DNA of 64,000 nt, from NCBI RefSeq assembly GCF_964213995.1, contig NW_027590210.1, forward strand, positions 248,001 to 312,000, written 5' to 3'. Every line of letters starts with the position of its first letter. The stretch's first letter is position 1. The notes beneath the pieces were generated by a model. That model had not been told where the DNA came from. It worked only from the letters and a program-made list of their open reading frames with translations, and searched no databases. This document shows, piece by piece, positions 1 to 28,835 of this stretch. The DNA is from Mustelus asterias (lineage: Eukaryota). A program made the position numbers and the translations under genes.

Positions 1-125
1 CCCATCCCTAGTTGCCCTTGGAGGGCAGTTGAGAGTCAACCACATTGCTGTGGCTCTGGAGTCACATGTAGACCAGACCAGGTCAGGATGGCAGATTTCC
101 TTCCCGAAAGGACATTAGTCAAACG
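1..125. mobile_element. Fragment of an interspersed repeat interrupting V segment 1
   Basis: GTTGAGAGTCAACCACATTGCTGTGG...GGCAGATTTCCTTCCC..AAGGACATTAGT resembles, from memory, a common elasmobranch repeat; V homology stops abruptly at about 137. Family not assigned. Confidence 0.55.
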
Positions 126-136
126 TAATATACACA

Positions 137-484
137 CAGCAGAGAACTTGTCAGGGAAATCTGCAGACCTTTCTCCCTTCCCCGTGCTGTATTTTTTCAG
201 TAAATATCTCGGAGCTTCCCCGGGATGTTGAATGTACCAGAAGAGAGTCTCGCCAGTCGTGTATTTTGTTGTGTAGTTGCAGTTCAATATTACCGTCTGT
301 CCTTCCTGGACCGTTAATTCGAGCAGGTCCTGGAAAACTGAATCTTGGCCATTGGTTCCTGTAACAACATATAGAATGTGTGAGAAATCTGTGAGTAAAT
401 ATCACCCATGCACACTGGGGATTTGAGCTCAGACTCACCGGGCAGCATGACCATTATTATCAGTAAAGCACACAGGGAACACAT
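137..484 (-). pseudogene. TRAV: TCR alpha/delta V segment 1 (family A), interrupted in FR3
   Basis: Leader exon 484-439 (MCSLCALLIIMVMLP, GTGAG donor). V exon from 358 after CAG: GTNGQDSVFQDLLELTVQEGQTVILNCNYTTKYTTGETLFWYIQHPGEAPRYLLKKYSTGKGERSADFPDKFSA. Similarity to V3 then ends; no second Cys or RSS within the window. Confidence 0.88.
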
Positions 485-616
485 GGTTCCTGATTGGAAA
501 GTTAGCAGCGACACTGTTTGAAATATGTTGTTGTTTCCAGTCTTGTGTCACAGAGTCAACTCAGATCAGAGGCAACTGCAATTATTGGGAAACTGGGGGG
601 CGTTTCTCAGTTTTGT

Positions 617-658
617 GATTGGCGAGCCTCCCTGAGATGACGTTAGCTTTGGACCAAT
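617..658 (-). promoter_or_regulatory. V1 promoter module: CCAAT, CRE-like TGACGTTA, inverted CCAAT
   Basis: Plus-strand GATTGG 617-622, TGACGTTA 638-645, CCAAT 654-658, about 135-175 bp upstream of the ATG; same order and spacing at V3. Confidence 0.55.
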
Positions 659-1367
659 CACTGTTTGCTGACGACGAAGTGCAGCTGGCTTTCCCCAATC
701 AAATTGTAGCCCAGGCTGAGTGCGTCTTTCTCACCCTCTTGCTCTCTGTCACATTCTCAGTCATTCTGTCTCTTTCTCTGTTTAACTAGCTTTCTTTCCA
801 ACTCAATGTCGGTATATTTCTTTAGGTAGATCTTTTCAATCAAGGTGAAAAATGGAACAGATAATTTGAAATCTGTCTGATGCACAGGTAATTAGTGTTC
901 AGGGTATGAGGATAATTAATAGACACCGTTCTAAGTACACCGGGAAAACGTAATTACCCAACTCTGCATTGAGATGCGGTTCCACTGGGAAAGCACTCAT
1001 TTCAGTCAGTCAATATTTTTAACCCAGCAACTTCAACATGTGACAACTCTAAACCTGCCTTTAGATATTTGATCACTTTTGAAAGGTGCAGACAGTTAAC
1101 TGATCTGGAACATTTAAAGGATAGATTGATGACGTTGTTCACCTGGTAGATCTGCGGATTTGTGTGAATGGTATCGAGGAATGATTGGAATTGATCTGGT
1201 ATAAACAAGTAAATATATGCCAAATTTTCCAACAGTGACAATCATTTACCTCAGTGAGCGAAAACACTCAGATGGGGCTGTATTGTCACGTATTATGGGT
1301 ACATTTTCTCTGATTTTTAACCCCATGTGTTGTCCTGACAATGAACCATTGATTTTCGACCTGCGCC

Positions 1368-1406
1368 AGTTTTTATATGAGGCCAGCGGGAGCCTCATTC
1401 ACTCTG
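1368..1406 (-). other. 23-RSS of V2, defective heptamer
   Basis: Heptamer CAGAGTG (invariant CAC lost), 23-nt spacer, nonamer ATAAAAACT. Confidence 0.85.
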
Positions 1407-1860
1407 GGTCTCAGTGCACAGTAATACACGGCGCTGTCTGTCACCTTCTAATCTTTCATAGACAAGTGAAAAGTGCTTTGTTTCAGGTTGAGATTCCCGT
1501 TCAAGTGTTCAAGTCCAGGAGCCGTCTCGGTAAACAAATAACTCGCGGCTCTGAGCAGCTGCTGAGGAGCTCGGTGTGGATACTGGCGATACCAGAACAG
1601 GTGATGTTGTAGAGCTGAACTCGATACCGAGTACCTGCAGGGCATTGCTGAATCTTCACCCTCTCCTGGTTCTGACTGGGGGCACTGAGTCTCCGTTACT
1701 CATCTCTGAAAATAGAAAACAGACACGCAGCGGGTTGGAAGGAGTAACGCCTCCAGATGGAAATGAGGAATGAATATGGTGATTGAGGATTTCACGCAGA
1801 AGTTCAAAATGACAGACCTGTAATCAGGACAATAACCGGAGTCACAGAGTTTCACCCCAT
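1407..1860 (-). pseudogene. TRAV: TCR alpha/delta V segment 2 (family B), decayed
   Basis: Leader 1860-1818 has TGA at codon 3. V exon 1705-1407 has a frameshifting deletion in FR1 relative to V4 and a TAG after LSMKD, but keeps PCRYS, LFWYRQYP and DSAVYYCALR. Confidence 0.9.
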
Positions 1861-2050
1861 GGTTCGAGTCTGAACACCAGAAACAGAGAGACTGATGTCT
1901 GTCTGCATCAGACCTGCAATTGGAGAAGTTGAAACAATCAGGGGGATGTTATGAGGTCGAAGGTGACTCCCTCTCTCCGTCCATTTTTACATCTTCAAAC
2001 AGATACTTCCTTTAGAAGAGGATGGTGATCTTTTTATAAGTGATCAGAGA

Positions 2051-2064
2051 GCGCCCTCCTGTGG
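2051..2064 (-). promoter_or_regulatory. CTCF-like motif upstream of V2
   Basis: Minus strand CCACAGGAGGGCGC versus consensus CCASYAGRKGGCRS; conserved at the same position upstream of V4. Confidence 0.55.
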
Positions 2065-2472
2065 ACAGCACAGCCGCATATCGGAAGCAGGTTCACACAA
2101 GGCCAACGGCAAAGATTTACACATATAGAGATCAGAGAATCATAGAATCATAGAACCCCTACAGAAGGAAGCCATTCGGCCCAGCGTTTTATCATCACCT
2201 TTGTTGGGGAATAAATGTGATCAGGGTAACTGAATACATTACCAATCGAGGAAAAACAATTAAAAGGGAAGATGTTTTATCTCAGTATCTCGAGCATGCT
2301 GGGCATTGTGCAACTTGGGAAGTTACCAGTTAAGAAAGTTGCCGCTATGATGAATGTGTAAAAACTAACAGACAGCAGTCTCGCCGAGCTGGTGCTGGAT
2401 CTGAACTCAGTGAGTTCAAACTGTTTTAGTTCAGAGTTCAGAAGATGGTGAGTAATATCCGGCCTCACTGGC

Positions 2473-2589
2473 GATTGGTTCATTCCTGACAAAGAGCCAG
2501 CAGGAGGCACCCAATCAGCTCACAGCTTCTCTGTCCTACGTTTCATCCAATCAGCTCAGAGAGTCTTTGTTCTCCAATGCATGACGTCA
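2473..2589. promoter_or_regulatory. Cluster of four CCAAT boxes plus palindromic CRE
   Basis: GATTGG 2473, CCAATCAGCT 2511 and 2547, CCAAT 2574, TGACGTCA 2582-2589. Confidence 0.4.
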
Positions 2590-2967
2590 GAGCGAGGAGC
2601 CGGAACCATTAGAATCTGTTCTCAGACAATGAACTGGACTCGAAGAAGCGGAACGACCGAATGGTGATGTCGCTCTTTGACAAAGTGAGGGCATGGAAAC
2701 GAATATTGGTCATTTTCCGGAGTTCATCTTTGAGATAAGACGCAGATGGATCTTGGTTAACGTTGTGGCAACAGCGGCAGAGTTTTCCATTGGAAGAGTT
2801 GCTCCAAACAGCTATAAAAATGGAATTTATATAGAATGGCACATTCAGCACCATGGAAAGAGAGCATTCGGCCTAACTCTTCTTTATAATATTGTTTGTT
2901 TATATTAACAGTTCACAATCCAGTTCACAGATCCGATTCAGTGAGAGGAGGTGAGAGTGCCTTTGCC

Positions 2968-3006
2968 GGTTTTTGTACGGGCTGACTGTGTCTCTGTAGC
3001 AGTGTG
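2968..3006 (-). other. 23-RSS of V3
   Basis: Heptamer CACACTG (3006-3000), 23-nt spacer, consensus nonamer ACAAAAACC (2976-2968). Confidence 0.93.
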
Positions 3007-3444
3007 GGACTCAGCGCACAGTGATACACGGCAGAGTCAGAGACACGGACCCCAGTGATATTTAAAGGAACTGTTTTCTTGTCCTTGTCCAAATCAGCAG
3101 AAAACCGGTCAGGGAAATCTGGAGACTTTTCTCCGCCACCCGTGCTATATTTCTGCAGTAAATATCTCGGAGCTTCCCCGGGATACTGGATGTACCAGAA
3201 GAGATTTGGCAAAGCATCTGTTGTTGTGTAATTACAATTCACTGTTACGTTCAATCCTTCCTGAACCGTGAGTTCAGGCGCATCCTGGGAAACTGAATCT
3301 TGGCCATTGGTTCCTGTAACAACATATAGAACGTGTGAGAAATCTGTGAGTGAATATAACCCATGAAACACACACTGAGGATTTGAGCTCAGACTCACCG
3401 GGCAGCGTGGCCATTATTATCAGTAAAGCACACAGGGAACACAT
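3007..3444 (-). CDS. TRAV: TCR alpha/delta V segment 3 (family A), apparently functional; leader exon 3444-3399, V exon 3313-3007
   Basis: MCSLCALLIIMATLP/GTNGQDSVSQDAPELTVQEGLNVTVNCNYTTTDALPNLFWYIQYPGEAPRYLLQKYSTGGGEKSPDFPDRFSADLDKDKKTVPLNITGVRVSDSAVYHCALSP. Phase-1 GT-AG intron, both V-domain Cys and the Trp present, followed by a 23-RSS. Alpha versus delta usage cannot be decided from sequence. Confidence 0.93.
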
Positions 3445-3576
3445 GGTTCCTGATAGGACAGTAAGCAGCGACAATGTTTACAATAAGTTGCTGCCTCTAG
3501 TCTTATATCACAGAGTCAACTCAGATCAGAGGCAGCTTCTATTATTAGGAAACTGGGAGGCGTTTCTCAGTGCTGC

Positions 3577-3618
3577 GATTGGCTCATCTCCCTGAGCTGA
3601 CGTTAGCTGTGAACCAAT
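3577..3618 (-). promoter_or_regulatory. V3 promoter module: CCAAT, CRE-like TGACGTTA, inverted CCAAT
   Basis: GATTGG 3577, TGACGTTA 3598, CCAAT 3614; paralogous to 617-658. Confidence 0.55.
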
Positions 3619-3851
3619 CACGGTTAGTTAATGATTTAATATAGCTGGCTGTTTCCAGTCACATTCCTTCCCTGACTGTAAACGCATTTCTAACTTATTT
3701 GCGCTCTCTCTGCTCTCTCTCCCACATAATCAGTTATTCTGTCTCACTAACTGGTTAACTCGCTTTCCTCCGAACTCACTCCATAAACCTTTCCGAAGGC
3801 AGATCCTTATTTCTAATTCAGGTGAAAAGTGAAATTAATTTAATCATTTGT

Positions 3852-4165
3852 GGGCGAAACGGTGGCACAGTGGTTAGCATTGCTGCCTCACAGTCCCAGG
3901 GACAGGGGTTCGATTCCAGCCTCGGGTCACTGCCTCTGTGGAGTTTGCACTTTCTGCCGGTATCTGCGTGAGGTTCCTCCGGGTGCTCCAGTTTCCTCTC
4001 ACAGTCCTCAGGTGTGCAGGTGTGCTGAATTGGCCATTTAAAATTACCCCTTAGTGTCGGTGCCTTAGCAGAGTAAAGTTGTGGGGTTACGGGGTCGGGA
4101 CTGGGTGGGATTGTTGACGGTACAGGCTCGTTGGCCCCATTCTGCACTGTAGGGATTCTATGATT
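3852..4165 (+). mobile_element. tRNA-derived SINE (HE1-like)
   Basis: A box GGTGGCACAGTGGTTAGC, B box GGTTCGATTCC, tail CTGTAGGGATTCTATGATT; absent from the paralogous site upstream of V1 (about 860). Confidence 0.85.
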
Positions 4166-4282
4166 AACAGCAGCCTAATTTACAGGTAGTAATGAGTGAT
4201 ATCCATAAATAATAGTTAGCGCTGTAAGTATACCGGGGATAAGGAGCCACCCAACTCTGCACCAGGAAATATTTCACGGGCT

Positions 4283-4790
4283 CATAACATAGAAACTAGA
4301 AGCAGGAGCCTTCTCCGCCATTCATCGTAATCATGGCTGATCATCGAATTCAATATTCTGGTTCCCCTTTCCCCTCTCCCATATCCCTCCACCCCTTTAG
4401 CCCCAAGAGCTACTGCAAATTTCCTCTTGAAATCAGACAATGTTTTGGCCTCAACTACATTCGGTGGAACTGAATTCCATACATTCAACACTCTCTGTGT
4501 GAAGGAATTTCCCTTCACCTCAGTTTACCCCTTATCTTCAAAAGACGACCCCTAGTTCTGGACTCCCCCCCACCATTGGGAACATTCTTCCGAATGTACC
4601 CTGTCTAATCCTGTTAGAATTTGAAAAGTTTCTATGAGATTCCCTTTCACTCTTCGAAACTCCAGTCAATATAATCCTAACGGATTTATTCTCTCCTCAT
4701 TTGACAGACCTGCCATCCCAGGAATCAGCCTGGTAAACCTTCGCAGTGACCGTTCCATAGCAGGAATATCATTCCTCAAGTAAAGCTCTG
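4283..4790 (-). mobile_element. CR1-like LINE 3' fragment
   Basis: ORF 4282..4518 NSFTQRVLNVWNSVP...FKRKF is the CR1 ORF2 C-terminus; tail ends TTCTATGTTATG. Confidence 0.85.
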
Positions 4791-5157
4791 ATTTCAATCA
4801 GTTATTATTTCTGTTCCAGGAACATTAAAACGGGACATTTCTGAAGCTGCATTTGATAATAGATCATTTTAAAAATGTGTCGCCTGACAGATAGGCACCT
4901 AATCAAGAATTCTTCTGAGTACAGATTAAGGAAGTTAGTTACCCGGAGTAATCTACAGGTTTTTGCGGATGGGATCGGGGAAGGATTGGGTTTGATCCGG
5001 GAATAATACGACGGCAAATGTGACATTTCACATCACCGACAATGGCTGAGCTCAGTGGGGGAATATCGTTCAGCTGGGGTTATATTGTCGCCTTCATTTT
5101 CTGTGCATTTTCGTTGAGTTTTTCCTGATCCCGAAGCCTCGATTGTCGGCTTGGGGC

Positions 5158-5196
5158 AGTTTTTGTATGGGATCCATGGGAGCCTCATTCACGGTG
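5158..5196 (-). other. 23-RSS of V4
   Basis: Heptamer CACCGTG, 23-nt spacer, nonamer ACAAAAACT. Confidence 0.9.
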
Positions 5197-5667
5197 ACTC
5201 TCAGTGCACACTAATACACGGCGCTGTCTGTCATCTTCAAATCTTTCATGGACAAGTGAAAAGTGCTTTGTGTCTGGTTGAGATTCCCGCTGAAGTGTCC
5301 AAAGCCGGGAGCCGTATCGGTAAACCCATAACTATCGGCTCTGAGCAGATACTGAGGACTTTGGTGTGGATACTGGCGATACCAGAACAGGTCATGTTGT
5401 ACAGCTGAACTCGGCACAGAGTAACTGCAGGGTATTGCAGAATCTTCACCCTCTGCTGCTTCAACTCTTGATCCTGAGTGAGACATTGAGTCTCCATTAC
5501 TCATCTCTGAAAATAAACAGCGGACGCACAGTGGGTTAGGAGTCAGAGGAAGACGATAGTCACACAGAGTTGGGAAGGGGAAATTGCACAAGGTTTGCGA
5601 TATACTTTTCAATCTGTGACCAGAATCACTGACCTGGGATCAGTGCAATAACTAGAATCAGGAACAT
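5197..5667 (-). pseudogene. TRAV: TCR alpha/delta V segment 4 (family B), single nonsense codon; leader 5667-5634, V exon 5506-5197
   Basis: MFLILVIALIP/EMSNGDSMSHSGSRVEAAEGEDSAIPCSYSVPSSAVQHDLFWYRQYPHQSPQYLLRADSYGFTDTAPGFGHFSGNLNQTQSTFHLSMKDLKMTDSAVY*CALR; TAG at 5213-5211 where V2 has TAC. Confidence 0.9.
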
Positions 5668-5868
5668 TTTCACCCCCAGCGTTCCAGTCTGAGCTCCAGA
5701 AACGGAAACAATGATCTCTGTCTGTACCGGACCTGGAATGTGAGAAGTTGAAAGAGTCAGCAAGGTGTAATGCGATTGGCTGGGATCTACTCCCCCCGCC
5801 CATTTTTATATCTGCAAATAGTCACTCTCCGAAGAAGGCGACTCTGGTGTTTGGTAAGCGATCAGAGA

Positions 5869-7986: not shown

Positions 7987-8372
7987 TTCCCCCCCCCGCT
8001 TGTTCCCCCCCCCCGCTTGTTCCCCCCCCCCGCTTGTTCCCCCCCCCGCTTGTTCCCCCCCCCCGCTTGTTCCCCCCCCCCCCGCTTGTTCCCCCCCCCG
8101 CTTGTTCCCCCCCCCCGCTTGTTCCCCCCCCCCCGCTTGTTCCCCCCCCCGATTGCCCGCCCCCCGATTGCCCGCCCCCCGGTTGCCCGCCCCCCGATTG
8201 CCCGCCCCCCGGTTGCCCGCCCCCCGGTTGCCCGCCCCCCGATTGCCCGCCCCCCGGTTGCCCGCCCCCCGGTTGCCCGCCCCCCGGTTGCCCGCCCCCC
8301 GGTTGCCCGCCCCCCGGTTGCCCGCCCCCCGATTGCCCGCCCCCCGATTGCCCGCCCCCGATTGCCGCCCCC
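7985..8372. repeat. C-rich minisatellites (GCTTGTT plus C8-12)n then 15-bp (CCCCCCGRTTGCCCG)n
   Basis: Directly visible; explains all Pro- or Gly-rich ORFs at 7812-8715. Confidence 0.95.
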
Positions 8373-9950
8373 AATCACTCTCTCAGGAACTCACCGCCAT
8401 AGCCCTCTGAGCCACTCCCAATCCTTCTCAACCCGCTGCCCTCAATCTCCACTAATTCCCCCCCAAAACTCCCCTTTCCCCCACCTGATTCCCTGTCCCT
8501 CTGCCCGATCTGCTTTAATCCGACTCTGTAAGCACCCCCTCCCCCTGCTCAATCTCTCTGACACCCACTGCCAATCTGACTCTCAGCCCCCTGAATCCTC
8601 CAAGTTCCTGCCCCAAATCCTCAGCCCCCCCCCCCCAAAGGCTCCCTTTGCCCCCCCTGCCAAAATCAAGCCACCCAATCCTTCCTCAGTCCTCCCCACC
8701 CCTGAATCCCTCTGAGTCACCCCCCCGCTCCGAATCGCTCGGCACCCCCCCAATTCTAACCCTGATGCAAGGCCCCACCCTAAATCCCTCTCTGAATTTC
8801 CCCCCTCCCAAATCCCTATAAATCCACCCCGCCCTCAATCCCTTTCCCTCCACCCCGACTCGCCCCCCCCCGCTAACTCCCTCTGACTCCCTACCCCATC
8901 CAGACCCTCCCCAGATTCTAAGCCCCTGAGATTCCTCTGGAATCCCCCCTGAATGTCTCCCGAGATCGCACCCACCCTCGCCACATTCCTCTGCCCCCGA
9001 ATCCTGCTCCCTCTCCAATCCCACCCCTTCTATCTGTCTGAGCACCAAACCATGTCTTTTAATCCCCGTAAACCCCCCAATCCCTCCTGTATCCCTCAGA
9101 ACCCCAGAAATCCCCCTCTGAGCCCCCTCTTCCCAAATCCCCCTCAATTCCCCCCGATTCCCTCCCTCTCAGCCCCGCTAAATCCCAAAGTCCCCATGAG
9201 ACCCTTAAATCCCCCTGAATCCCTCTAATTCCCGACCACAATCCCTGAGTCTACCCCTACATCCCTCTACACTCTCCCCCTTTAATCCCCCTCAATCCCC
9301 CCCCCACTCCAGCCAAATCTGTCATCCCTCCTCACAATCCCTCTAAATCTCCCGATCCTTCCCTCTGAGCCCCGTATCCCTCTAAGTTCCCCTCTTTCCC
9401 CCCCCGCCCCTCTCAACCTGGCAAATTCCCACTCCCTCCCTGTGAACAGCCTCTGGACTGACAGATCCCCCCCTTTCTAATTAGTACCCCCCCCCCCTCC
9501 GCGCATCCATCCCCGTCCACCACCCCCCTGTAAACAGCTCCTGGTGGAGTTGGATGTGGAAACTCTGCCCATTTTAAACATTAACGTTCTAATGACTCAT
9601 TCCCTTGACACTGAGCAGCCTGTGTTATAACATCCCCCACCCCCATCCTGTACAACAGACCCCCTGTCTGATTCCCCCTCCCCCCTCCTCCATTGCCCCC
9701 TTTCTCTGATAACGCCTGACTCTGGTCAGCCTGTGTTATAATATTCCCCCCTCTTGTACAACAGCCTCCCCCACCGGCCCCTTCCCTCTCTGTCTAATAG
9801 CCCCCGGCTCTGAACAAGCCCCTGTATTACACACTCCCCCCTTTCAGCAGTGCTGAATCCCTCTGAATTGCCCCCGATTCCCTCCCTCTGCGTTCCTGGG
9901 CCCTTGCTGCTTGTGAACAGCAAAACCCGTGATCTGGCCCGTTCCCCCAC
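8373..9950. repeat. C-rich low-complexity tract
   Basis: Extreme C-over-G skew with recurrent AATCCC(C/T) and CCCTCT words. Confidence 0.8.
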
Positions 9951-10560
9951 GAGAGAGCAGAGAGAGAGAGAGATATAAGAAGACAGAGATAGAGAGAATG
10001 CTGCTGTAATTCAGACAGAGTGATTCACAGAGAGGGGGAAGCAGAGATCAGAGAGATGGAGATGGGGAGGATGCGACTGTAATTCAGACTGATTCACAGA
10101 GAAGGAAGCAGAGATCAGAGAGAGGGGGAAGCAGATAGAGAGAGGGGGAAGCAGATAGAGAGAGAGATAAGAGACAAATAAAAGCAGAGTTAAAGTTAAA
10201 ATTTTATTTGTTAATCACAAGTAGGCTTACATTAACACTGCAATGAAGTTATTGTGAAAAGATATAGAGATGGGGAGTGAGAGAGAATGCTGCTGGACTT
10301 CAGACAGAATGAGTCACAGAGAGGGAGCAGAGATAGACAGAGGGGGGAGCAGAGAGATAGAGAGAGAGACGGAGAGGAGGCTGCTGCTGTGATTGAGATA
10401 AAATGATCCACAGAGAGAGAGATGTCCAGAGAGGCTGAGATACAAAGTGAGATGTCGAGATAAATAGAAAGTGGGGCTTTGGCAAGACAGAGTGACAAAG
10501 TTTCAGAGAGTGAAAGATAGAGAGAAGGAGAGAAAAAGGGAAAGATGCTGCCATTGTGAG
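9951..10560. repeat. GA-rich low-complexity tract with an embedded SINE tail (minus, about 10190-10258)
   Basis: (GA)n and AGAT words; TTTATTTG..CACAAGTAGGCTTACATTAACACTGCAATGAAGTT is the reverse complement of the tail at 21110-21170. Confidence 0.75.
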
Positions 10561-10731
10561 AGGCTGAGGTATAAAGGATGGGGAGAGACCGGGATTGGAA
10601 AGATGTGGAGAAACAGTTCTGAGGATGGGGGAGTTGCACAGACAGAGCTTCAGGGAGAGGGATTGAAATCTGTGGGATTACATTGGAGCAGGGATCACTG
10701 GGAATACCCCCTCCCCCTGACACACAGACCA

Positions 10732-10900
10732 CTAACCCTCCGTGTAAAAGCCCCACCAGTCTATCTGTGAATAAAAATGAACGACCAAGACACGGGGACT
10801 TTTATTAATATTTTTCTCTCTGGTTATAGCTCTTGTCCGAGGATTCCTCATGGCAAAACTATTCGCTCTCTGCATCGCCAAAGTTTCCAAAGGAATTCTC
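10732..10900 (-). CDS. Candidate last exon of the repeat-exon gene
   Basis: Long polypyrimidine tract then CCAAG acceptor. Phase-2 frame RIPLETLAMQRANSFAMRNPRTRAITREKNINKSPRVLVVHFYSQIDWWGFYTEG*; RNPRTR matches RNPWTR of the upstream exons. An alternative phase-0 reading ENSFGNFGDAESE* is followed by AATAAA. Confidence 0.4.
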
Positions 10901-11820
10901 CTTGGAAGAGAGAAAGAGAAAATAAAGTGAAATTTGATTAAACACAAAACAAAAGCTGATTATAAACAATAAAAGGCACAGCAAGATCCCAGGACTTGCT
11001 GAAATTCACAATCTCACTGGGGGAGGTGGGGGAAACATTCAGTTTCACCTCCTCATTATTAAACCCTGACAAAATGGGAACACGTTTCAAATGCAATGAA
11101 CTTCCAACTGCCTCCTGACTGTCCCGATATTGAATTTATTAAACACATCAAAGCATTCTGGGGGCTTTACTCCAGAGACAGGCCAGTGAAAAAACACAGG
11201 AGGCCCCAATGAAGTTCCCACTTCTATCAGTCACCTCTCTCCCCTCACTCTGTTTCTCCCTCTCCGTCTCCTACACACTTCCCCCAGATCTCTATCTGTC
11301 CAATACCCCGTCTCTGCTCCTGTCTCTGGATAACCTGTCCTGATCTCTGCTCTGTTTCTCTATCTCGAGGCGAATCTGGATTGAAATGCTCTCTCTAAGT
11401 TTCTGTCTGACCGTTTAAAATAAAACTCACAATCAAAAGGGAAATGAGAGGGGGGGGGGGGGGGGGGGCGCGGGGGGGGCAGGAAAATCCACAATCCCAC
11501 CCTGAAGCGGCTGCTTCACATTTTATTGAACCATTGAATTCAGCCACTTAAACCCTGTTGGGGAATTAAGCGAATGCAAAAGTGCTGCTGAGATTTAGGC
11601 CGTGAAGCGCGGCCTAGTCACAGAGGCTGCATTATTCCTCAGGTGGAAAGAACAAACCCCCCTCTCTCCCACCCCCCAGTTAAACAGAACAATCTTCTCC
11701 ATCCACACCCACAAATCCCAGCGCCCTGTCTAAAAACACAAGCAGGACTCTGGGATTGAGAACAAGCCTTTCCCCCAGGCTCAGGAATTTGAATTTCAGC
11801 TCAGGAATTTGAATTTATAC

Positions 11821-11904
11821 ATCCTGGACAAAGAACAGGTTCCCCAGGCCCCGGCCAGTTCACCAGAACAATCCCCTCCAGCCCCGAAACCTCCCGGACA
11901 GGGC
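11821..11904 (-). CDS. Candidate 84-bp phase 2-2 exon of the repeat-exon gene
   Basis: Acceptor TTCCCCCCTCCCTCCTCCCAG; PCPGGFGAGGDCSGELAGAWGTCSLSR then AT/GTATAA donor (weak); WGTCSLSRM parallels WTEACSIGRM. Confidence 0.4.
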
Positions 11905-12941
11905 CTGGGAGGAGGGAGGGGGGAAAAGGGAACCAGTGCTGCCCCCACCCCCTGTCCCCTTCCACCCTCCCCTCACACCGCACGCAGCCCCCATTACAGA
12001 ATCATAGAATCCTACAGTACAGAAGGAGGCCATTCGGCCCATCAGGTCTACACCAACCACATTCACATCCAGGCCCCATCCTCATTACTCCATGTGACTC
12101 TCTCTCTCTCTCTCTGTCTCCCTGTCTCTCTCTCTCTTTGTGTGACTTTCTCTCTGTCTCTCCCGATCTCTCTCTCCCTGTCCAATATTGTTATGAAGTT
12201 GCGTATATCAGGTTAAAAATGTGGTGTTTGACAAATGTAAATATTGAAAAGAAATGCTGAGAAAACCAAAACGAACCATCCAGCGTTGTGTCTTTAGAAA
12301 GCCTGTGTCTCTGTGCTGGGGATTTTAAACTGCAGAAAGCAGGCTGCAGAACACAACTTTACAAACATTTGTGTCCAAAGCAGCAGCCAGAGTCCCAGCA
12401 GAGCAAAACAGGCTTTGAACTGGACCAATGATTTTAAAACAAGCTCTCAAACGCACACAACCAATTGCATTCAAATTGGGGCGTTGGTGACAGCCTCAAG
12501 CCACTCAAATTGCAGGAATACTGTGAGGAAATTCTGGGTATTTAAACCCGGGACAGGGGGAAATAACGGGGAGGGAGCGACCTTGCTGCCTCTTTAGATT
12601 GAAGGGGGGAGAGTCTGATACTGAATCCTGCAGTAATATATACAGCTTCATCACATCACCATCTAAATAGAAGCAGAAACCAACTCAGAAAGTATTCCAG
12701 ACCCAAGCAGCAGAAGCAAGTTCACACTTCCAACAGACGCCTGGTTATTCGAGGGTGACTCTATTCTGTAATGATTTATTTCATTATTCCTGAGTGAGTC
12801 TTGTCCTTGGAACAGCATTCTACTGGGGAGTTTATTCAGTTTGTTCATTGTTTTAATAAGGTTGTCACCCAGTCTAAATTAAAGACCTGTTTGGTTGTTC
12901 CTGATGGAGAGAGTGTCAGATCTTGCTTTAATTTACCAATT

Positions 12942-13120
12942 TCTCCCACAGTCCAAAGCTGTGCGGGTTCGGTGGATTGGCCGTGTTAAATTGACCCCAG
13001 TGTCAGGGGGATTAGCAGGTTAAAAGTGTGGGGTTACGGGAATAGGGCCTGGGTGGGATTGTGGTTGGTACAGACTAGATGGGCCGAATGACCTCCTTCT
13101 GCACTGTAGGGATTGAATGT
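12942..13120 (+). mobile_element. 5'-truncated SINE (HE1-like)
   Basis: Similar to the 3' half of 3852-4165. Confidence 0.75.
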
Positions 13121-15244
13121 CTAAAACCAGTCGCTTCCTCCTGTCTCACACACACTTATTTAAGATTACGAGGCGAGGTGTATCCCTTTAGGGGGTTACA
13201 AAATAGCGCAGAGGGAAACATCACCTCAGAGTGGTAACAATATTTATAATCCCACAATCACACACCCACCCTCCCTTAGTCAATGAATGAATGATTCAAA
13301 TGACAATGAAGGTAATTCTGCACAGCAAGATCCCACTGCCAGTCCCACAGTGGAGGAGGACACCCCCAGACTCTGTGTCTCTTTCCCCCTGCCCCTCCTG
13401 AGACCCTCTCACATCTCCCCCACCCCCTCTCTGTTTAGCTCTCCCTCCATTTCTCTATCTCTCTCTCTGCCTCCTCCGCCTCCCCAACCCTTCTCCTTCC
13501 CTCAATCTTTCCTGTTTAAAGTTCTGCTCACGGTCACAGTGCGAGGAATAGGGAGCCAGACCCACCTGTGTGCACAGCAAGATCCCACACACACAACCTG
13601 GTGAGGGCCAGATTAAATAAATGTTGTGGGTGAGGACTGCAGGAGAGTGTGTGGGAAATGGGATCCACTCCTCTCTCTCTCTCTCTCTCTTCCCAAATTT
13701 AAATTGACAACAATTCACATTGGTGTTTTCTTAAACATTTATTGAAAGATGAAATATAGACAGGAATGTCTGGGGAGAGAGGGAGGGGAGGGGTGCTGGG
13801 ATTGGTAAGAACACTGGAGAGACAGAGAAATTCTATACCCCCCCCCCCATCCAAATAGAAAATTCCTGGGAAAAGACAGAGAGAAAAGAAATCTGGAGTC
13901 ACACAGCACAGAAACAGGCCCTTCGGCCCACCAGCTCCATGCTGGCCATCAAATCCCAATCTATCCTCCTCCCATTCCCCAGCACTTGCTCAAGAGCCTA
14001 CGATGCCTCGGTGATTAAAGTGCTTGAATTTACCCGACCCCTTTTCAAGCTTTTTCCTTGAACCCACTTTGCGGTCCCTGAGCCAGATTTTGTTTGAAAA
14101 TAAAAAGTGTGGGCGCTGTTGCTGTGCAGGCAAAGGCCACAGGCCCAGTGTGTGCACAGCAAGATCCCACAGTAGCAGCAGCAATGTGAACCTGAATCAG
14201 ATGGGACACAGTCCTCCCCCCACCCCTCCCCCACTCTCTTGCCTGCTGTGAGCCCCCTTCCCCACTCACTACCCTGTGTGTGTCTGTGTGTGTGTGTCTG
14301 CATCATCCCAAATCTCCAGAAAGGCCGGAACTCCCTCTTAAAAGTAACCCTTTTTAAAACTAAAATCCCTGTGGTGCACAGCAAGATCCCACAAAGTGCA
14401 GTCAGCTGTGTTGAGCATTTTTTAAATTTGGGAATTGTTTATACAGAGTGAGGGAGCCAGAGAGGGGCTGAGACAGTGAAATCCCTCTCTCAGGACCCTC
14501 AGAATTAAACTGGAGACCCTGTCCCTCACTGAAACCCCCCCTCCCTCTAACAGCCTGTGTCTCTCCCCCTGCATCTAATCCACAACTCCAGCTGTTTCCA
14601 TCCCTCCCTCTTCCTCTCTCTCCCTGCCTCTCTGTCTCCATCTGTTTCTGCTCGAGAAGAGACGGGGAGAGAGAGAGACGGGGAGAGACAGAGATAAAGC
14701 GAGAGAGACAGATATTTGATAATTAATTGTGTATGGTCGCATGATTGAGTGTGGTTTAATTTGGTGATTTTTTTTATACAGAGAGGCAGAGAGAGAGGTG
14801 AAGACAGTGACATTCTCCCCCTGGCACCCTCGCAAGTTCAAAGACACAAAAGCTGCAGACACTCACACACACAAACTGGGTTTGGTAAGTTTCCCAATCT
14901 CTGCAGCTTCCCATGTGGCCCAGGGTTTGAATTGAAATTTAAAAGCAGCTTGGAGAGACTGAAGGATTTTTGAGTTGAGTTTCTCCCCCCCCCTCACCCT
15001 GTAAATATAAAATAGAAATTCCTGGATTAAAATATTCCCTTGGACAGAGCAGAGGGAATGTGTGAGTGGTGTGTGTGTGTGTCTGAGACCTAGGCTGGAT
15101 TTGGGAATATCTGCCTGCTGAAGAGGGTCAGTGAAACCATCCTGGCTGAATATCTCATCGCTAAAGAGTCACAGAGAGAGATATCTGATCAATAAATGTG
15201 TTACTGAACCCACTCTGGATGCTCCCTCTATCTCTGTCTTTCTC

Positions 15245-15548
15245 ACTAACTTCATTGCAGTGTTAATGTAAGCCTTGTGACACTAAGAAATAAACTTTAA
15301 ATCTTTCAACTTTAAAAACTCTCTCTTTCTGTCTCTCTCAGTAACTGCAGCGTTAATGTAAGCCTTACTTGTGACACGAATAAACAAACTTTAAAACTTT
15401 AAATATCCTCTCTGTCTCTTTCTGTCTCTTTATCTATGTCTCTGTCTCTGTGTGTCTCTGTCTCTCTCAGTAACTTCATTGCAGTGTTAATGTAAGCCTT
15501 ACTTGTGACACTAATAATCAAACTTTAAAACTTTCAACTTTAAAACCT
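15245..15548 (+). repeat. Three tandem copies of a SINE 3' tail
   Basis: AACTTCATTGCAGTGTTAATGTAAGCCT..TGTGACACTAATAA..AACTTTAA-like at about 15248, 15341 and 15470. Confidence 0.8.
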
Positions 15549-16670
15549 CTGTCTGTGTGTCTCTGTCTCAATTCAGACACTAGTTCAGTGCCAGGTTGAG
15601 AGGGGGTCAGTATTGAGCAGAATGGGGGGCAGTTTGATACAAAGTTTGCAGAAACTGCAGCGAGTGTTTGTAAACATGTTGGGGTTGTGGAAAGGTCAGT
15701 GTGTAACAAGCTGAGGGAAGGTGTTTCCACTTCACATGTGGCTACTTTTTGACAGAGTTACCTTTGCATCTACAGGGAGCTCTGAAGCCTCATGGCTTTC
15801 TGCCTGCCTCTGTTTGAACAGTTTAATATGTTTCAGCACTGAGACCTCTGGCCCTTGTTGGGAATATCAGTCTCCCAGAATACCAGTATACCTGACTGCC
15901 CACCTCCCCGCCCGCCAACCCCAGCCCCCAACCCTGTGTGTGTGTTGTCCCAAGTCTGGAGACTTCCCCACAGTCCCCTGAAAGGTTTAAACTGCCTCTG
16001 AGAAAACACCCCTTTTTAAAACAAAATCCCCAGCAAGATCCCACAAGGTGCAGTCAGCTGTGTTGAGAGTTTTGTAATTTGGGAAAAGTTTATACAGAGA
16101 GAGAGAGAGTGAGGCAGAGAGGGGCTGAGACAGTGAAATCAAACCCCCCGGGACACCCAGAATGAAAATTACACAGCACAAAATCCCAGGATTGCCCCTT
16201 TCCAGGTTTTACTGAGAGTTTGTCCAACTAAATATTAATTCCTGGGAAAAAGAGGGAGAGAGAGAGAATAAAGAGAGGCAGAGAGAGGAAGGAAATGGAG
16301 AGAAAAGCAGAGAGAAATAGACAGAATGGGGGAAAAGCTGTGGAGAGGATGAAATGAAAATCTGAACATCTGTTAACTGAATTGTAAAGGCCTCTGTGAA
16401 TTTTATTCAACAATTAGGTTCATTGCTCTGTCTCCGACCCCTGTTATTTTAGATTTAAAGCAAACTTATAGACAGTTTCATACATAATTTAGTCTTTGCC
16501 ACCCACCAAAGGGTTAACGTGTTCGCGACTAATTACAAAGCCGGGATATTTTAACCCCAGGGTTTCAAACTCCAGCCCCCCACACCCCACAATCGACCAG
16601 AACTGGTTCATCCGAGGAAGCGAGATTAAAATTAAACCTGGATCAGGGTAATAAAGAGACGACAACTCAC

Positions 16671-16772
16671 ATGCGGCCGATAGAACAGGCCTCAGTCCAT
16701 CCATCCTCCTCTGGAGAAAAGCCCCTTGTCCAAGGATTCCGAGTCATGTTGCAGTCTTCAAAATTCAAATTC
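16671..16772 (-). CDS. 102-bp phase 2-2 exon of unknown repeat protein
   Basis: TTTTCTCTTCTCCCCAG acceptor, GTGAGT donor; only open frame NLNFEDCNMTRNPWTRGFSPEEDGWTEACSIGR. Confidence 0.6.
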
Positions 16773-17591
16773 CTGGGGAGAAGAGAAAATAATGAATTAA
16801 GGTACAAGAAAATGTTTAAATTAAATAGCACAAGAGCCCAGGATTCCCCCTTCTAAGATTTCACTGAGAGATTGTTTAACTAAATATGAATTCCTTGGGA
16901 AGAGATAGAATATAATTAATTTAAATACAAGAAAATGTTGAAATTAAATAGCACAAGAGCCCAGGATTCCCCTTTCTCAGTTACACAATCTCTCAGTAAA
17001 AGCTAAATATTAATTCTTGGGTAAAAGAGAGAGAAATATATTAAAATACCAGAAAATGTTTAAATTAAATAGCACAAGAGCCCAAGATTCCCCCTTCTCA
17101 GATTTTACTGAGAGATTGTCCAACAAAATATGACTTCCTGGGAAAAAGAGGGAGAGAGAGGGAATAGAAAAGAGAGACAGATAGAGGAAGGAAAGGGAGA
17201 GAAAGAGAGAAAGCGGAGAGAAATAGACAGAATGGCGGAAAAGCTGCAGAGAGGACACAATGAAAGTCTGAACATCTGAAAACTGAATTGTAAAGGCCTC
17301 TATGAATTTTATTCAACAATTAGGAACAGCGCTCTGTCTCCCATCCCCTGTTATCTTGGATTTAAAACTAACTTTCAGACTGCTTCATATTACAGATATT
17401 TAATTTACTCTTTGCCACCCAGCAAAGGGTTAACCTGTTTCTGACTAACTGCAAAGCCGGGATATTTTAACCCCAGGGTTTCAAACTCCAGCTGCCCCCC
17501 CACACCCCACAATCGAACCAGAACTGGTTCATCCGAGGAAGCGAGATTAAAATTAAACCTGGATCAGGGTAATAAAGAGATGACAACTCAC

Positions 17592-17727
17592 ATGCGGCCT
17601 ATAGAACAGGCCTCAGTCCATCCATCCTCCTCTGGAGAAAAGCCCCTTGTCCAAGGATTCTGAGTCCCATTGTAGTCTCTCATGTACTCTGCATTGAAAC
17701 GAGCGAAGCCATATTCCTGTCTCCCTG
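17592..17727 (-). CDS. Variant exon with different 5' half; acceptor uncertain (17727, 17724 or 17716)
   Basis: GRQEYGFARFNAEYMRDYNGTQNPWTRGFSPEEDGWTEACSIGR, GTGAGT donor; in frame only if entered in phase 1 (17727 or 17724) or phase 0 (17716). Confidence 0.45.
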
Positions 17728-18319
17728 CTGACAATAACGGAGAGTTTTTATTGATTAAAGATTTAAAGAGACACAAAGAAAGATGGAGCCAGAGAGAGAG
17801 AGAGACATTCTGGAGAGTGATAGACAGATATGGAAGAACGCTCGAGAGAGAGAGAGATGAGCGGAAAGAGACAGGAAGGGAGAGAAAGCTGAAGATGAGA
17901 AAAAATACTGGAGGGAGAGACAGAGAGAAAAGCAGAGAGAAATAGACAGAATGGGGAAGAAAGCTGTAGAGGGGAAGATAAATGCAATGGCTGAACTTCA
18001 GAAAATTGAATTGTAATGTCCTCTGTGAAACGTATTTAACATTCGGGTATATCACTCTCTCCCACCCCTGATATTTTGGATTTATATCAAACTTTTAGAC
18101 AGCTTCATATTACAGATATTTAATTTACTCTTTGCCACCCACCTAAGGGTTAATGTGTTTGTAACTAATTGCAAAGCTGGGATATTTTAACCCCAGGGTT
18201 TTAAACTCCACCCCCCCCCCCCCCCCTCCCCACCCCACAATCGAACCAGAACTGGTTCATCCGAGGAAGCGAGATTAAAATTAAACCTGGATCAGGGTAA
18301 TAAAGAGACGACGACTCAC

Positions 18320-18421
18320 ATGCGGCCTATAGAACAGGCCTTAGTCCATCCATCCTCCTCTGGAGAAAAGCCCCTTGTCCAAGGATTCCGAGTCATGTTG
18401 CAGTCTTCAAAATTCAAATTC
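18320..18421 (-). CDS. 102-bp phase 2-2 exon copy
   Basis: CCCCAG acceptor, GTGAGT donor; NLNFEDCNMTRNPWTRGFSPEEDGWTKACSIGR. Confidence 0.6.
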
Positions 18422-19243
18422 CTGGGGAACAGAGAAAATAATTAATTAAAGTACAAGAAAATGTTTAAATTAAATAGCACAAGAGCCCAGGATTCCCCCT
18501 TCTAAGATTTCACTGACAGATTGTTTAACTAAATATGAATTCCTTGGGAAGAGATCGAATATAATTAATTTAAATACAAGAAAATGTTGAAATTAAATAG
18601 CACAAGAGACCAGGATTCCCCTTTCTCAGTTACACAATCTCTCAGTAAAATCTAAATATTAATTCTTGGGTAAAAGAGAGAGAAATATATTAAAATACCA
18701 GAAAATGTTTAAATTAAATAGCACAAGAGCCCAAGATTCCCCCTTCTCAGATTTTACTGAGAGATTGTGCAACAAAATATGACTTCCTGGGAAAAAGAGG
18801 GAGAGAGAGGGAATAAAAAAGAGAGACAGATAGAGGAAGGAAAGGGAGAGAAAGAGAGAGAGAAAGCAGAGAGAAATAGACAGAATGGGGGAAAAGCTGC
18901 AGAGAGGACACAATGAAAGTCTGAACATCTGAAAACTGAATTATAAAGGCCTCTATGAATTTTATTCAACAATTAGGAACAGCGCTCTGTCTCCCATCCC
19001 TGTTATCTTGGATTTAAAACTAACTTTGAGACAGCTTCATATTACAGACATTTAATTTACTCTCTGCCACCCAGCAAAGGGTTAACCTGTTTCTGACTAA
19101 CTGCAAAGTCGGGATATTTTAACCCCAGGGTTTCAAACTCCAGCTGCCCCCCCACACCCCACAATCGAACCAGAACTGATTCATCCGAGGAAGCGAGATT
19201 AAAATTAAACCTGGATCAGGGGAATAAAGAGACGACAACTCAC

Positions 19244-19345
19244 TTGCGGCCTATAGAACAGGCTTCAGTCCATCCATCCTCCTCTGGAGATAAGCCCCTT
19301 GTCCAAGGATTCCGAGTCACATTGCAGTCTTCAAAATTCAAATTC
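19244..19345 (-). CDS. 102-bp phase 2-2 exon copy
   Basis: CCCCAG acceptor, GTGAGT donor; NLNFEDCNVTRNPWTRGLSPEEDGWTEACSIGR. Confidence 0.6.
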
Positions 19346-19736
19346 CTGGGGAGAAGAGAAAATAATTAATTAAAATACAAGAATTCTTTAAATTAAATAG
19401 CACAAGAGGCCAGGATTCCCCCTTCTCAGTTACACAATCTCTCAGTAAAATCTAAATATTAATTCTTGGGGAAAGAGAGAGAAAATAATTAAAATACAAG
19501 AAAATATTTAAATTACATAGCACAGCAAAAAACCCAGGATCTCCCCTCAGTGACACAATCTCTCAGTAACACCCAAACACAACAAGTCAGTTGTAAAGCA
19601 GAGACTAAAGAGATTGAGACAGTTCCCTCCCTGTGTGTTTCTCTCTCTCTCTCTCTATTCCACTCTCATTCAGATCTCGCTCCCTCTGATATGAAACATT
19701 AAATCTGGATCAGGTTAATAAACAGACACAACTCAC

Positions 19737-19861
19737 TCGGGATGAAGCCTGAGCAACAGGCCTCAGTCAGCCCTCCCTCTGGACGAAGCTCCTCTCCCTC
19801 ATCCTGGTCACAAACATTCCCGTCCTTTGGATCCTCGACACATCCCCAGTTTTCAAAATTC
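19737..19861 (-). CDS. Divergent 125-bp paralogous exon (phase 2 to 1)
   Basis: TCTCTTTTTCTCCTGAG acceptor (unusual GAG), GTGAGT donor; NFENWGCVEDPKDGNVCDQDEGEELRPEGGLTEACCSGFIP; downstream intron start is homologous to the other copies. Confidence 0.45.
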
Positions 19862-20873
19862 CTCAGGAGAAAAAGAGATAAAAATTGGTTAAAAAGAGAG
19901 AGAAAAAGAGACAAGGCCATTTTAACAATAAGACACACAACATATCACAGCGAGGAGTCCAGCATTTCCATTCAAGTCCATTCAGCATCATGTCAACACA
20001 AGCAAAGCACAGGTAAAAACGCAGATTGAGACACACACACACACACTGAATCAGAGTGGGAATGTTTTCAGTGCAGGGGGATTATTGGTGTGGAGACTGA
20101 AGGCTCTCAGATTCACATTTATCCTGAGTGTGCTGGATGCAAACCCCACCCTGAGTCTCTGACATGTCTGCAATGTCTGTCTCTCTATTGAGATGCTAAT
20201 TCACCCCCCCTCCCCCTCTCACCCCAGAGGAGTTTGTGGCAATGTCAGACTGACTATTGATATGTTAATGCAGGGAGGCAATGGATTCTGCAATCTCCTG
20301 CCTTTAGTTTCTTTAGTTTCGTTTCAAACTTTATTTCTTTTCCCCTGTAGGTCGTGTTCGTCCATTTCAAAAACCCCCTGACCCCCCCACACCAGCCCTG
20401 AAAATCCTTGCAGCCGCTCCCCACAACCCAGCGAGTGGAGGGGGAATGGGGATGTGTGAGTGAGTGGATTGGGGGGATTGTGTCAGTGTGTGTCTGTCTA
20501 TCCCCCCCCTCTCTGCTCACACTTCCTGCCCAGCCTGCTGAAGACAGGGAAAGAATGGGAGTTGAACAAAGCCTCCTCTCTGCCTCCATTTTCAAAGGAT
20601 TTGCCCCTTTCTCACACCAGTTTTGTCCATTGAGCTGTCCCTATCAATTGGAAAAAAGTTTTATTTATCTCGCTGTGAGATATGAAGTCACTAATTACTA
20701 AATACAGGCAAAAACATCCCATTATGAGACACGGAGGTTCAATGGGATTTTAAACTGAAATCCTCGGATGTCAATTCCTTAGGTTAAAAGTTTCTAATTC
20801 ATTAATTTGGATTAAATTAAAACCGGCCAGTATATTCTCACCAGCTGCTTTCTGTTAACTCTCCCCCTTATCA

Positions 20874-21172
20874 CCGGTGGTTAGCACTGCTGCCTCACAG
20901 CGCCAGGGACCCGGGTTTGATTCCCGGCTTGGGTCACTGTCTGTGCGGAGTCTGCACGTTCTCCCCATGTCTGCGTGGGTTTGCTCTGGGTGCTCCGGTT
21001 TCCTCCCACAGTCTGAAAGACGTGCTGGTTAGGGTGCATTGGCCGTGCTAAATTCTCCCTCAGTGTAACCCGAACAGGCACCGGAGTGTGGGCGACTCGG
21101 GGATTCTCACAGTAACTTCATTGCAGTGTTAATGTAAACCTACTTGTCACACTCGTAAATAAACTGAAACTT
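20874..21172 (+). mobile_element. tRNA-derived SINE
   Basis: GGTGGTTAGCACTGCTGCCTCACAGCGCCAGGGACCCGGGTTTGATTCC head; tail GTAACTTCATTGCAGTGTTAATGTAA. Confidence 0.85.
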
Positions 21173-21199
21173 AACACTCCTGCACTCTCCCGCCAGCAC

Positions 21200-22982
21200 T
21201 CACTCACTGTTGTACACTTACTCAGTCTCACACACATTACACACATACTCACTTTTACACACTCCCTCTTGCACACTTGCTCACACACACACTCACTCTC
21301 ATAAACACTCACTTTAACACACTCACATCAACACACACATGAATACTCCCTCACACACTCTCACACACACATTCACTCACTCGCACGCACTCNNNNNNNN
21401 NNNNNNNNNNNNNNNNNNNNNNNNNNNNNNNNNNNNNNNNNNNNNNNNNNNNNNNNNNNNNNNNNNNNNNNNNNNNNNNNNNNNNNNNNNNNNNNNNNNN
21501 NNNNNNNNNNNNNNNNNNNNNNNNNNNNACACTCTGTCTCGCTCACACACACTCTCTGTCTCGCTCGCTCACACTCTCTGTCCCGCTCACACACACTCTC
21601 TGTCTCTCACACACACTCTCTGTCTCTCACACACACTCTCTGTCTCTCACACACACTCTCTGTCTCTCACACACACTCTCTGTCTCGCTCACACACACTC
21701 TCTGTCTCTCACACACACTCTCTGTCCCTCTCACACACACTCTCTGTCTCTCACACACACTCTCTGTCTCTCACACACACACTCTCTGTCTCGCTCACAC
21801 ACACTCTGTCTCGCTCACACACACTCTCTGTCTCGCTCACACACACTCTCTGTCTCGCTCACACACACTCACTGTCTCGCTCACACACACTCACTGTCTC
21901 GCTCACACACACTCACTGTCTCGCTCACACACACTCTCTGTCTCACACACACTCTCTGTCTCTCACACACACACTCTCTGTCTCGCTCACACACACTCTC
22001 TGTCTCGCTCACACACACTCTCTGTCTCGCTCACACACACTCTCTGTCTCGCTCACACACACTCTCTGTCTCGCTCACACACACTCTCTGTCTCTCACAC
22101 ACACTCTCTGTCTCTCACACACACTCTCTGTCTCTCACACACACTCTCTGTCTCTCACACACACTCTCTGTCTCTCACACACACTCTCTGTCTCTCACAC
22201 ACACTCTCTGTCTCTCACACACACTCTCTGTCTCTCTCACACACACTCTCTGTCTCTCTCACACACACTCTCTGTCTCTCACACACACTCTCTGTCTCTC
22301 ACACACACTCTCTGTCTCTCACACACACTCTCTGTCTCTCACACACACTCTCTGTCTCGCTCACACACACTCTCTGTCCCTCTCACACACACTCTCTGTC
22401 CCTCTCACACACACTCTCTGTCTCTCACACACACTCTCTGTCTCTCACACACACACTCTCTGTCTCTCACACACACACTCTCTGTCTCGCTCACACACAC
22501 TCTCTGTCTCTCACACACACTCTCTGTCTCTCACACACACTCTCTGTCTCTCACACACACTCTCTGTCTCTCACACACACACTCTCTGTCTCGCTCACAC
22601 ACACTCACTGTCTCGCTCACACACACTCTCTGTCTCGCTCACACACACACTCTCTGTCTCGCTCACACACACACTCTGTCTCGCTCACACACACTCTCTG
22701 TCTCGCTCACACACACTCTCTGTCTCGCTCACACACACTCTCTGTCTCGCTCACACACACTCTCTGTCTCGCTCACACACACTCTCTGTCTCGCTCACAC
22801 ACTCTCTGTCTCGCTCACACACACTCTCTGTCTCGCTCACACACACTCTCTGTCTCGCTCACACACACTCTCTGTCTCGCTCACACACACTCTCTGTCTC
22901 GCTCACACACACTCTCTGTCTCGCTCACACACACTCTCTGTCTCGCTCACACACACTCTCTGTCTCGCTCACACACACTCTG
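21200..22982. repeat. CA/CT-derived minisatellite (20-22-bp unit CTCTCTGTCTC(GC)TCACACACA) with a gap
   Basis: Directly visible. Confidence 0.95.
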
Positions 22983-28495: not shown

Positions 28496-28835
28496 CGGTG
28501 ATGAGACAGAACGTTTGCCAAAGTGCACAGAAATAGGCAGCATTGTCAGCATTTTAGCTGGAAGCTTCAAATGACAAAGGGATCTTAATAGTAGAGTCAC
28601 AGAATCCTTGCAGTGCAGAAGGAGACCATTCAGCCCATCGAGTCTGTACTGACTCTCTGACACAGTATCTTACCAAGGCCCTTGACCCAGCCCTATCCCC
28701 GTAACCCCACACATTTACCTTAATCCACCGAACCTACACAGCTTTGGACAGGAAACGGCAATTTACTGTGTCCAATCCACAAATTTGGAAAATACTGGGA
28801 TGGATTGAGAAATGGTTTCCGGGCAGAAAACAGAG

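Follow-up and report, generated by a model that had tools for sequence, protein, structure and literature searches.

A mass-duplicated cassette of Mustelus asterias, most probably the gene of a spliced non-coding RNA and not of a modular protein

The 64,000-nucleotide stretch analysed here (hereafter the window, to whose positions all unlabelled coordinates refer) comes from Mustelus asterias (NCBI RefSeq assembly GCF_964213995.1, contig NW_027590210.1, positions 248,001 to 312,000 of the forward strand) and contains a series of minus-strand exon-like segments built around a repeated unit of 102 nucleotides (nt), which a first-pass annotation had taken for a modular acidic Cys/Trp repeat protein. 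We found these segments to belong to an amplified genomic cassette and conclude that this cassette is most probably a non-coding RNA gene duplicated en masse, and not the gene of a novel repeat protein. In full, the reading is that a 13-17 kb cassette, present in at least 439 near-identical copies of which the window holds one, encodes a spliced non-coding RNA and is drifting without selection on a protein, and to this we give a probability of roughly 60%, because of the number of copies and because no sign of protein selection was seen. The predicted transcript would comprise a long 5' exon, several 102-nt repeat exons and polyadenylated last exons, and the RNA would have no sequence-specific job.

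Copy number and setting of the cassette

8368 to 21390, unstranded: full extent of the amplified cassette in this copy (about 13 kb), bounded by a G-rich satellite and by (CA/GA)n arrays

Exact matches to a marker in E0 (a segment of the 5' side, described below) and to a marker in the last segment numbered 439 each in the whole 3.68-Gb assembly, and starts of the 102-nt unit numbered 1177 (about 2.7 units per cassette, 1177/439), with 0 matches for the reversed-pattern controls of the marker and unit-start counts; the cassette number is a lower bound. When a 301-bp query was used, 1719 candidates were returned, and the 40 that were scored were 97-100% identical including the intron flanks. 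Seven of the seven other copies fetched could be aligned over most of 8368-21390 in long pieces, mostly 88-98% identical with introns included, so that many near-identical genomic copies retaining introns are present, as in multi-copy long non-coding RNAs (lncRNAs) of segmental duplications. The unit is thus a dispersed repeat, an outcome that the first-pass annotation had itself named as speaking against its protein.

Among the matches listed, cassette copies lay mostly on small contigs and in both orientations; they were flanked by microsatellite and G-rich satellite arrays. Other copies are longer (13-17 kb) because this copy carries deletions. Segmental duplication is the likely route by which the whole cassette spread through a compartment rich in satellites, where T-cell receptor (TCR) variable (V) segments have been amplified too. 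Where the cassette meets the TCR V region of the window, at 8000-8400, there is a G-rich tandem satellite, and related arrays, kilobases long, lie beyond other copies (for example L005).

The 102-nt unit exons and their tandem duplication

19244 to 19345, minus strand: unit exon 1, 102 nt, CAG acceptor and GTGAGT donor
18320 to 18421, minus strand: unit exon 2, 102 nt, CAG acceptor and GTGAGT donor
16671 to 16772, minus strand: unit exon 3, 102 nt, CAG acceptor and GTGAGT donor
16166 to 19577, unstranded: tandem array of exon-plus-intron segments, plus extra repeats of about 120 bp of the acceptor region

The splice signals described in the first-pass annotation were found in each of the three units (pyrimidine tract with CAG acceptor, GTGAGT donor, phase 2-2), as were the single open frame of three and the listed synonymous and replacement differences. 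Across 75 records the unit was symmetric, in frame and bounded by canonical splice sites, with 207 of 217 units measuring 102 nt. An open frame of this length is weak evidence of coding, being present in 34% of 5000 shuffles.

The units had also been presented as serially duplicated mini-exons. They are real and the array grows by duplication, but what is copied is the whole segment with its introns: comparison within the window gave a 92% match between 16298-17678 and 17923-19330, introns included, and units 1 and 2 were identical at 96/102 exon positions, 54/59 positions of the upstream flank and 82/85 of the downstream flank. Exons in the array were no better conserved than introns, and the clean look of the three units reflects recent copying. 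These data support the identity of the exons and growth by exon-plus-intron duplication, and the number of repeat exons likely shifts by unequal recombination between such repeats.

Evidence for splicing

Four sequencing runs, all in the form of assembled contigs, were compared with 17500-20900. One of them, X1, which we took to be RNA by guess, apparently derives from another organism, and its contigs are mostly 90-95% alike to the window. It bears on two features.

19737 to 20863, minus strand: likely long 5' exon, from X1 contigs, with cover continuous over 19736-20146
19737 to 19861, minus strand: E0, a 125-nt diverged paralog of the unit, its donor at 19737 used and its acceptor at 19861 read through in X1

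Two types of exon-exon joint were observed in X1, the first linking the 3' end of E0 to a unit start (loose end at 18419) and the second linking a unit end to a unit start (19343 to 17591, in a variant common in this genome), the latter being a joint that cannot be assigned to one unit copy. A contig ended at the E0 donor and ran unbroken to 20146, and X1 depth was 12-60 over exons vs 0-3 in most intron bins, simple-repeat bins aside. In this probable RNA run both types of joint fall at the predicted splice sites, and the E0-unit joint breaks the reading frame. Among the joints listed, X1 was the only one of the four runs to contain either type; run X2 covered introns and exons alike and X3 covered little, and neither informs splicing. 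As 1175 of the 1177 unit starts in this genome are preceded by CAG (one exception having a GAG acceptor), processed copies are an unlikely source of the X1 joints, by a control that is indirect in that X1 possibly comes from another species.

Homology of E0 to the unit, as the first-pass annotation had held, was significant (z=5.1, p=0.002, 500 shuffles). E0 is not a self-standing exon in X1, where one contig spans 19736-20146 through the 19861 acceptor and so makes 19861-19737 the 3' end of a longer exon, and E0 is asymmetric in phase (125 nt; phase 2 in, phase 1 out). The separate X1 contigs make it likely that the long 5' exon reaches to about 20863.

Splice sites were intact in 217/217 acceptors and 216/217 donors, frameshifted units (see below) included. 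Such preservation could also be expected if the RNA were functional without coding, as a heterochromatin-associated structural RNA or small-RNA precursor whose copy number is under selection, an alternative that we hold to be possible at perhaps a third of the weight of the preferred one. It agrees with the finding of the element in runs of more than one organism code, and with the analogy to the human FRG2 paralogs as set out in the available part of PMC12242771. The near-invariance of the four splice bases is not strong evidence for it, because only about 0.4 variants per site are present; none of 59 Rfam matches came near the gathering score, and no conserved intronic island was found among old paralogs, where identity was roughly 0.6-0.9 in exons and introns alike. 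A conserved small RNA per intron, as in hosts of microRNAs (miRNAs) or small nucleolar RNAs (snoRNAs), was not found by the Rfam and island checks, which leave room for small RNAs of unknown kind.

Other exon-like segments of this copy

17592 to 17727, minus strand: deletion chimera, the 5' part of a 134-nt exon-like segment plus the 3' part of a unit, not frame-symmetric
11815 to 11904, minus strand: predicted terminal exon, 5' part; truncated in this copy by a deletion of about 2 kb
11522 to 11730, minus strand: second predicted terminal-exon-like paralog, with AATAAA at 11527-11522 and z=4.7 to the 11904 segment
10780 to 10900, minus strand: third predicted terminal exon, with an acceptor and AATAAA at 10806-10801

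At least seven segments sharing a motif had been proposed, and beyond the three units this was clear for E0 and modest for the 10900 segment, whose homology to the unit was weaker (z=2.9, p=0.01). Segment 17727-17592 is not simply a diverged unit; a deletion has fused it from two different segments, one of which, the 134-nt exon-like segment, is intact in another fetched copy (L004) and is itself not frame-symmetric. Three acceptors are possible for 17727-17592, and the resulting lengths of 136, 133 and 125 nt are all indivisible by 3. Nor could 11904-11821 be upheld as an 84-bp internal exon of phase 2-2, since the junction of the approximately 2-kb deletion is a few bases away from the GTATAA 'donor' that follows 11821 and homology to the unit was not significant (z=0.9, p=0.19). 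In 7/8 matched copies, the eighth being this window, the 11904 segment continues to an AATAAA 117 nt later, which suggests that it is a last exon at which the transcript would be polyadenylated.

Tests for protein coding

To begin with the units themselves, a first sample of 145, picked via best protein hits, had 0 indels and 0 stops, with 21 replacement vs 8 synonymous variants; this way of picking hid a frameshifted class. A second and less biased sample (24 records picked by a 22-nt pattern) revealed a 2-nt deletion in 10/65 full units, with 17 replacement vs 4 synonymous variants. When all 217 units of the 75 records were pooled, there were 30 replacement and 9 synonymous variants, and omega, computed among paralogs, was 1.03-1.19 (confidence interval 0.48-2.85). 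Purifying selection on the amino acids of the unit was thus not detected among paralogs (omega about 1). Stop variants in the pooled set numbered 0 vs 1.6 expected, and the variant rate of the exon (41/102 sites) did not differ from that of the intron (64/137; p=0.49), so that the variation looks neutral. The frameshifted unit, with its acceptor intact, was found at 109 places genome-wide, and two further units were interrupted by an insertion. A search with a stop-codon pattern returned 916 matches, all of them TGG among the 100 listed, and gives no stop count.

The segments flanking the units were also off frame. E0 measured 125 nt in 54/68 copies, 111 nt in 10/68 and 144 nt in 4/68, and its junction with the unit was out of frame in this copy, where the joined frame hits a stop within two codons, and in 54/68 copies. 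No continuous open reading frame (ORF) was found across the exon chain proposed in the first-pass annotation. Upstream of E0, the frame of an ATG was shifted in 9/47 copies, and the hydrophobic stretch that follows from it is a pyrimidine tract read as codons. Among paralogs of 70-80% identity, on chromosome-scale and other contigs, the frame was kept in 1/7 of the E0 type and 0/3 of the unit type. With omega near 1, 109 frameshifted units, flanking segments and old paralogs off frame and no credible homolog, the proposed modular acidic Cys/Trp repeat protein is not sustained, and the transcript would have no protein product.

Several observations weigh against the preferred reading. The coding test is limited in power because the paralogs are young, and the omega interval of 0.48-2.85 excludes only strong constraint on the whole family, so that a handful of coding copies might go unnoticed amid hundreds of passenger copies. 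There were 0 stop variants in 207 full-length units. Two independent length variants of E0 (111 and 144 nt) both bring it in frame with the unit, and 12/68 copies have an ATG, the hydrophobic stretch, E0 and the first unit in frame; 4/7 of the X1 substitutions listed inside E0 are synonymous. In most of the copies read, joining a unit to an intact 11904-type exon gives a frame of 41 codons whose stop precedes the AATAAA. Splicing itself rests on the contigs of one run whose RNA status is guessed and which show neither strand nor level, and the organism code of X1 differs from that of the best DNA matches.

The lack of stops, the 12/68 copies in frame and the 41-codon frame would suit units that, at least in some copies, encode a modular acidic Cys/Trp protein, as would the length of 102 nt in 207/217 units. 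Translation of such a protein would begin at an ATG, either within the unit or upstream of E0, and the 11904-type exon would be its last. We consider this unlikely. Apart from the values of omega and the frameshifts, E0 is out of frame in most copies and at the X1 junction, the putative leader is a pyrimidine tract that is itself frameshifted in some copies, and all ten 111-nt E0 copies form one subfamily in which 8/10 list a frameshifted unit downstream. Protein searches gave no homolog. Less probable again, and to be regarded as speculative, is a new secreted-peptide family arising from the amplified non-coding cassette, in which two independent indels would have brought the first exon, together with an ATG and a hydrophobic leader, into the frame of the Cys/Trp exons in those 12/68 copies, giving dozens of polymorphic de novo genes beside amplified TCR V segments. 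If such an in-frame minority were translated, it would offer a rare population of hundreds of loci for studying de novo gene birth.

Homology and family searches

Seven segments were compared with Pfam and gave no accepted match; a beta-defensin match (E 0.26) was sub-threshold and was rejected, and a likeness of the unit to MAM or kringle domains found no Pfam support. A word-indexed protein search with the frames of E0, the unit and the 134-nt exon found nothing, which is weak evidence by the tool's own note. With phmmer against 1.84 billion representatives, two matches were obtained and discarded as chance sums over unrelated repeat proteins, and the ESM Atlas gave no usable match, an uninformative result. 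No published description of the element was found by a literature search, outside whose scope lie Dfam and Repbase.

Older dispersed relatives with a LINE-type tail

20254 to 20470, plus strand: region with older dispersed relatives on many chromosome-scale contigs, variably truncated and with a 3' tail of long interspersed nuclear element (LINE) type

A query from a decayed copy on C1 recovered at least 40 loci at 78-90% identity on many chromosome-scale contigs. When 14 of these were aligned with the window, all shared one common end, starting with short repeats, and extended for variable lengths into sequence matching 20470 towards 19700. The common end matches approximately 50-100 nt that adjoin reverse-transcriptase C-terminal motifs elsewhere, and one ORF with such motifs matched Pfam ALKBH8_N; the LINE supplying the tail is presumably Rex1/Babar. 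The older relatives therefore combine a 3' end in common with a LINE and variable 5' truncation, as retrocopies resembling short interspersed nuclear elements (SINEs) do, and the window copy is without the LINE tail. To judge by sequence, the pattern is that of 5'-truncated retrocopies of an antisense RNA carrying a LINE tail; an older generation was likely copied from the opposite strand by the LINE enzyme into truncated SINE-like insertions. With its LINE 3' tail and a body of antisense cassette sequence, this is an apparently uncatalogued SINE-like family of at least 40 loci.

The age of these loci raises the question of origin. That the cassette is a decayed remnant (an unprocessed pseudogene) of an older coding gene or of a multi-exon transposon is conceivable, at about the same modest likelihood as a functional RNA, and would be compatible with the non-coding reading. 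In its favour, the cassette has several paralogous exons with real exon-intron anatomy, an open frame of 42 codons, colinear with E0, survives in one old E0 paralog, and old copies cluster on few chromosome arms, two of them near seven-transmembrane (7-TM) receptor ORFs. Homologous bases nevertheless lie in different frames in E0 and the unit, with donors in three phases, and no intact parent was found among the diverged loci fetched; the chromosomal copies on C1 and C25, considered as such parents, were decayed. No transposase or terminal repeat appeared in the ORF lists, and no search was aimed specifically at terminal repeats.

Near old cassette copies we also observed single-exon 7-TM receptor ORFs at L102:3-608 (Pfam 7tm_1) and C25:52068373-52069536, which we take to resemble GPR139. 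A long terminal repeat (LTR) retrotransposon with long gag-like and reverse-transcriptase ORFs (498 and 895 codons) was seen at L118:1130-5162.

Neighbouring TCR V segments and the rest of the window

3003 to 3311, minus strand: TCR alpha/delta-type V exon outside the cassette, followed by a signal like a recombination signal sequence with a 23-nt spacer (23-RSS); Pfam V-set E 6e-18; amplified

Four TCR alpha/delta-type V segments of two alternating types lie on the minus strand of 1-5700. At 3003-3311 the frame is open and the 23-RSS-like signal is present; the segment near 1400-1700 appears to carry a frameshift, and that near 40-400 runs out of V sequence towards its 3' end. The segment at 3003-3311 had 2001 candidate relatives, of which 150 were scored; many near-identical copies lie on small contigs, one subfamily has stops, and the pattern reflects strong amplification or assembly redundancy. 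As 11/30 contigs bearing matches to the cassette query were also among the 150 scored V matches, the closest cassette copies travel with V segments, and beside other cassette copies no V was seen within the stretches read.

The remainder of the window (21400-64000) consists of microsatellite and minisatellite arrays and about four repeats (near 28000, 43300, 49250 and 59300) of a unit of several kb composed of pieces of LINEs and SINEs. A YFCALW-like motif near 59600 in the ORF list has a paralog at 28500 amid SINE sequence and is probably due to chance.

Comparison with known systems

As read here, the cassette, a lineage-specific repeat with a spliced transcript, is apparently undescribed but of an ordinary kind. 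Its importance is for annotation, since a modular protein is what gene finders and readers will predict from it, and it also serves as a marker of the satellite-rich compartment with its heavily amplified TCR V segments. On this reading three modes of copying have acted on one sequence, namely internal tandem duplication, segmental duplication and LINE-mediated retroposition.

C19MC and SNHG14 are small-RNA hosts in which tandem exon-plus-intron units lie within a non-coding transcript; the cassette differs from them in that it matched no known family of miRNAs or snoRNAs and its introns showed no conserved island. In the elasmobranch antigen-receptor complex (PMC12227049), V exons of TCR alpha/delta type are scattered, as they are beside this copy, although the cassette is unmentioned in the sections of that paper at hand and many cassette copies have no V nearby in the stretches examined. 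For the older copies, with a fixed LINE-like end and a variable other end, the closest likeness is to LINE-tailed SINEs with stringent 3' recognition, whose SINE/LINE tail arrangement is described in the accessible part of PMC3747384; they differ in that their body is the antisense of the cassette 5' region, with no known tRNA head seen, and in that the window copy is tail-less. The NBL2 macrosatellite, as portrayed in the portion of PMC6009586 available, is likewise a large repeat unit yielding a long non-coding RNA, in a head-to-tail array, whereas copies of the cassette lie dispersed between other satellites and in either orientation.

Human FRG2 shares with the cassette dispersed paralogs in repeat-rich regions, complete and partial copies and transcripts whose coding potential is small or in doubt (PMC12242771, in the sections consulted), a likeness of organisation. 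FRG2 has 14 paralogs vs at least 439 cassettes, and the internal tandem exon repeats are the cassette's own. By this analogy, the best reading is that the cassette would work like the multi-copy heterochromatic lncRNA and pseudogene families of which FRG2 is an example.

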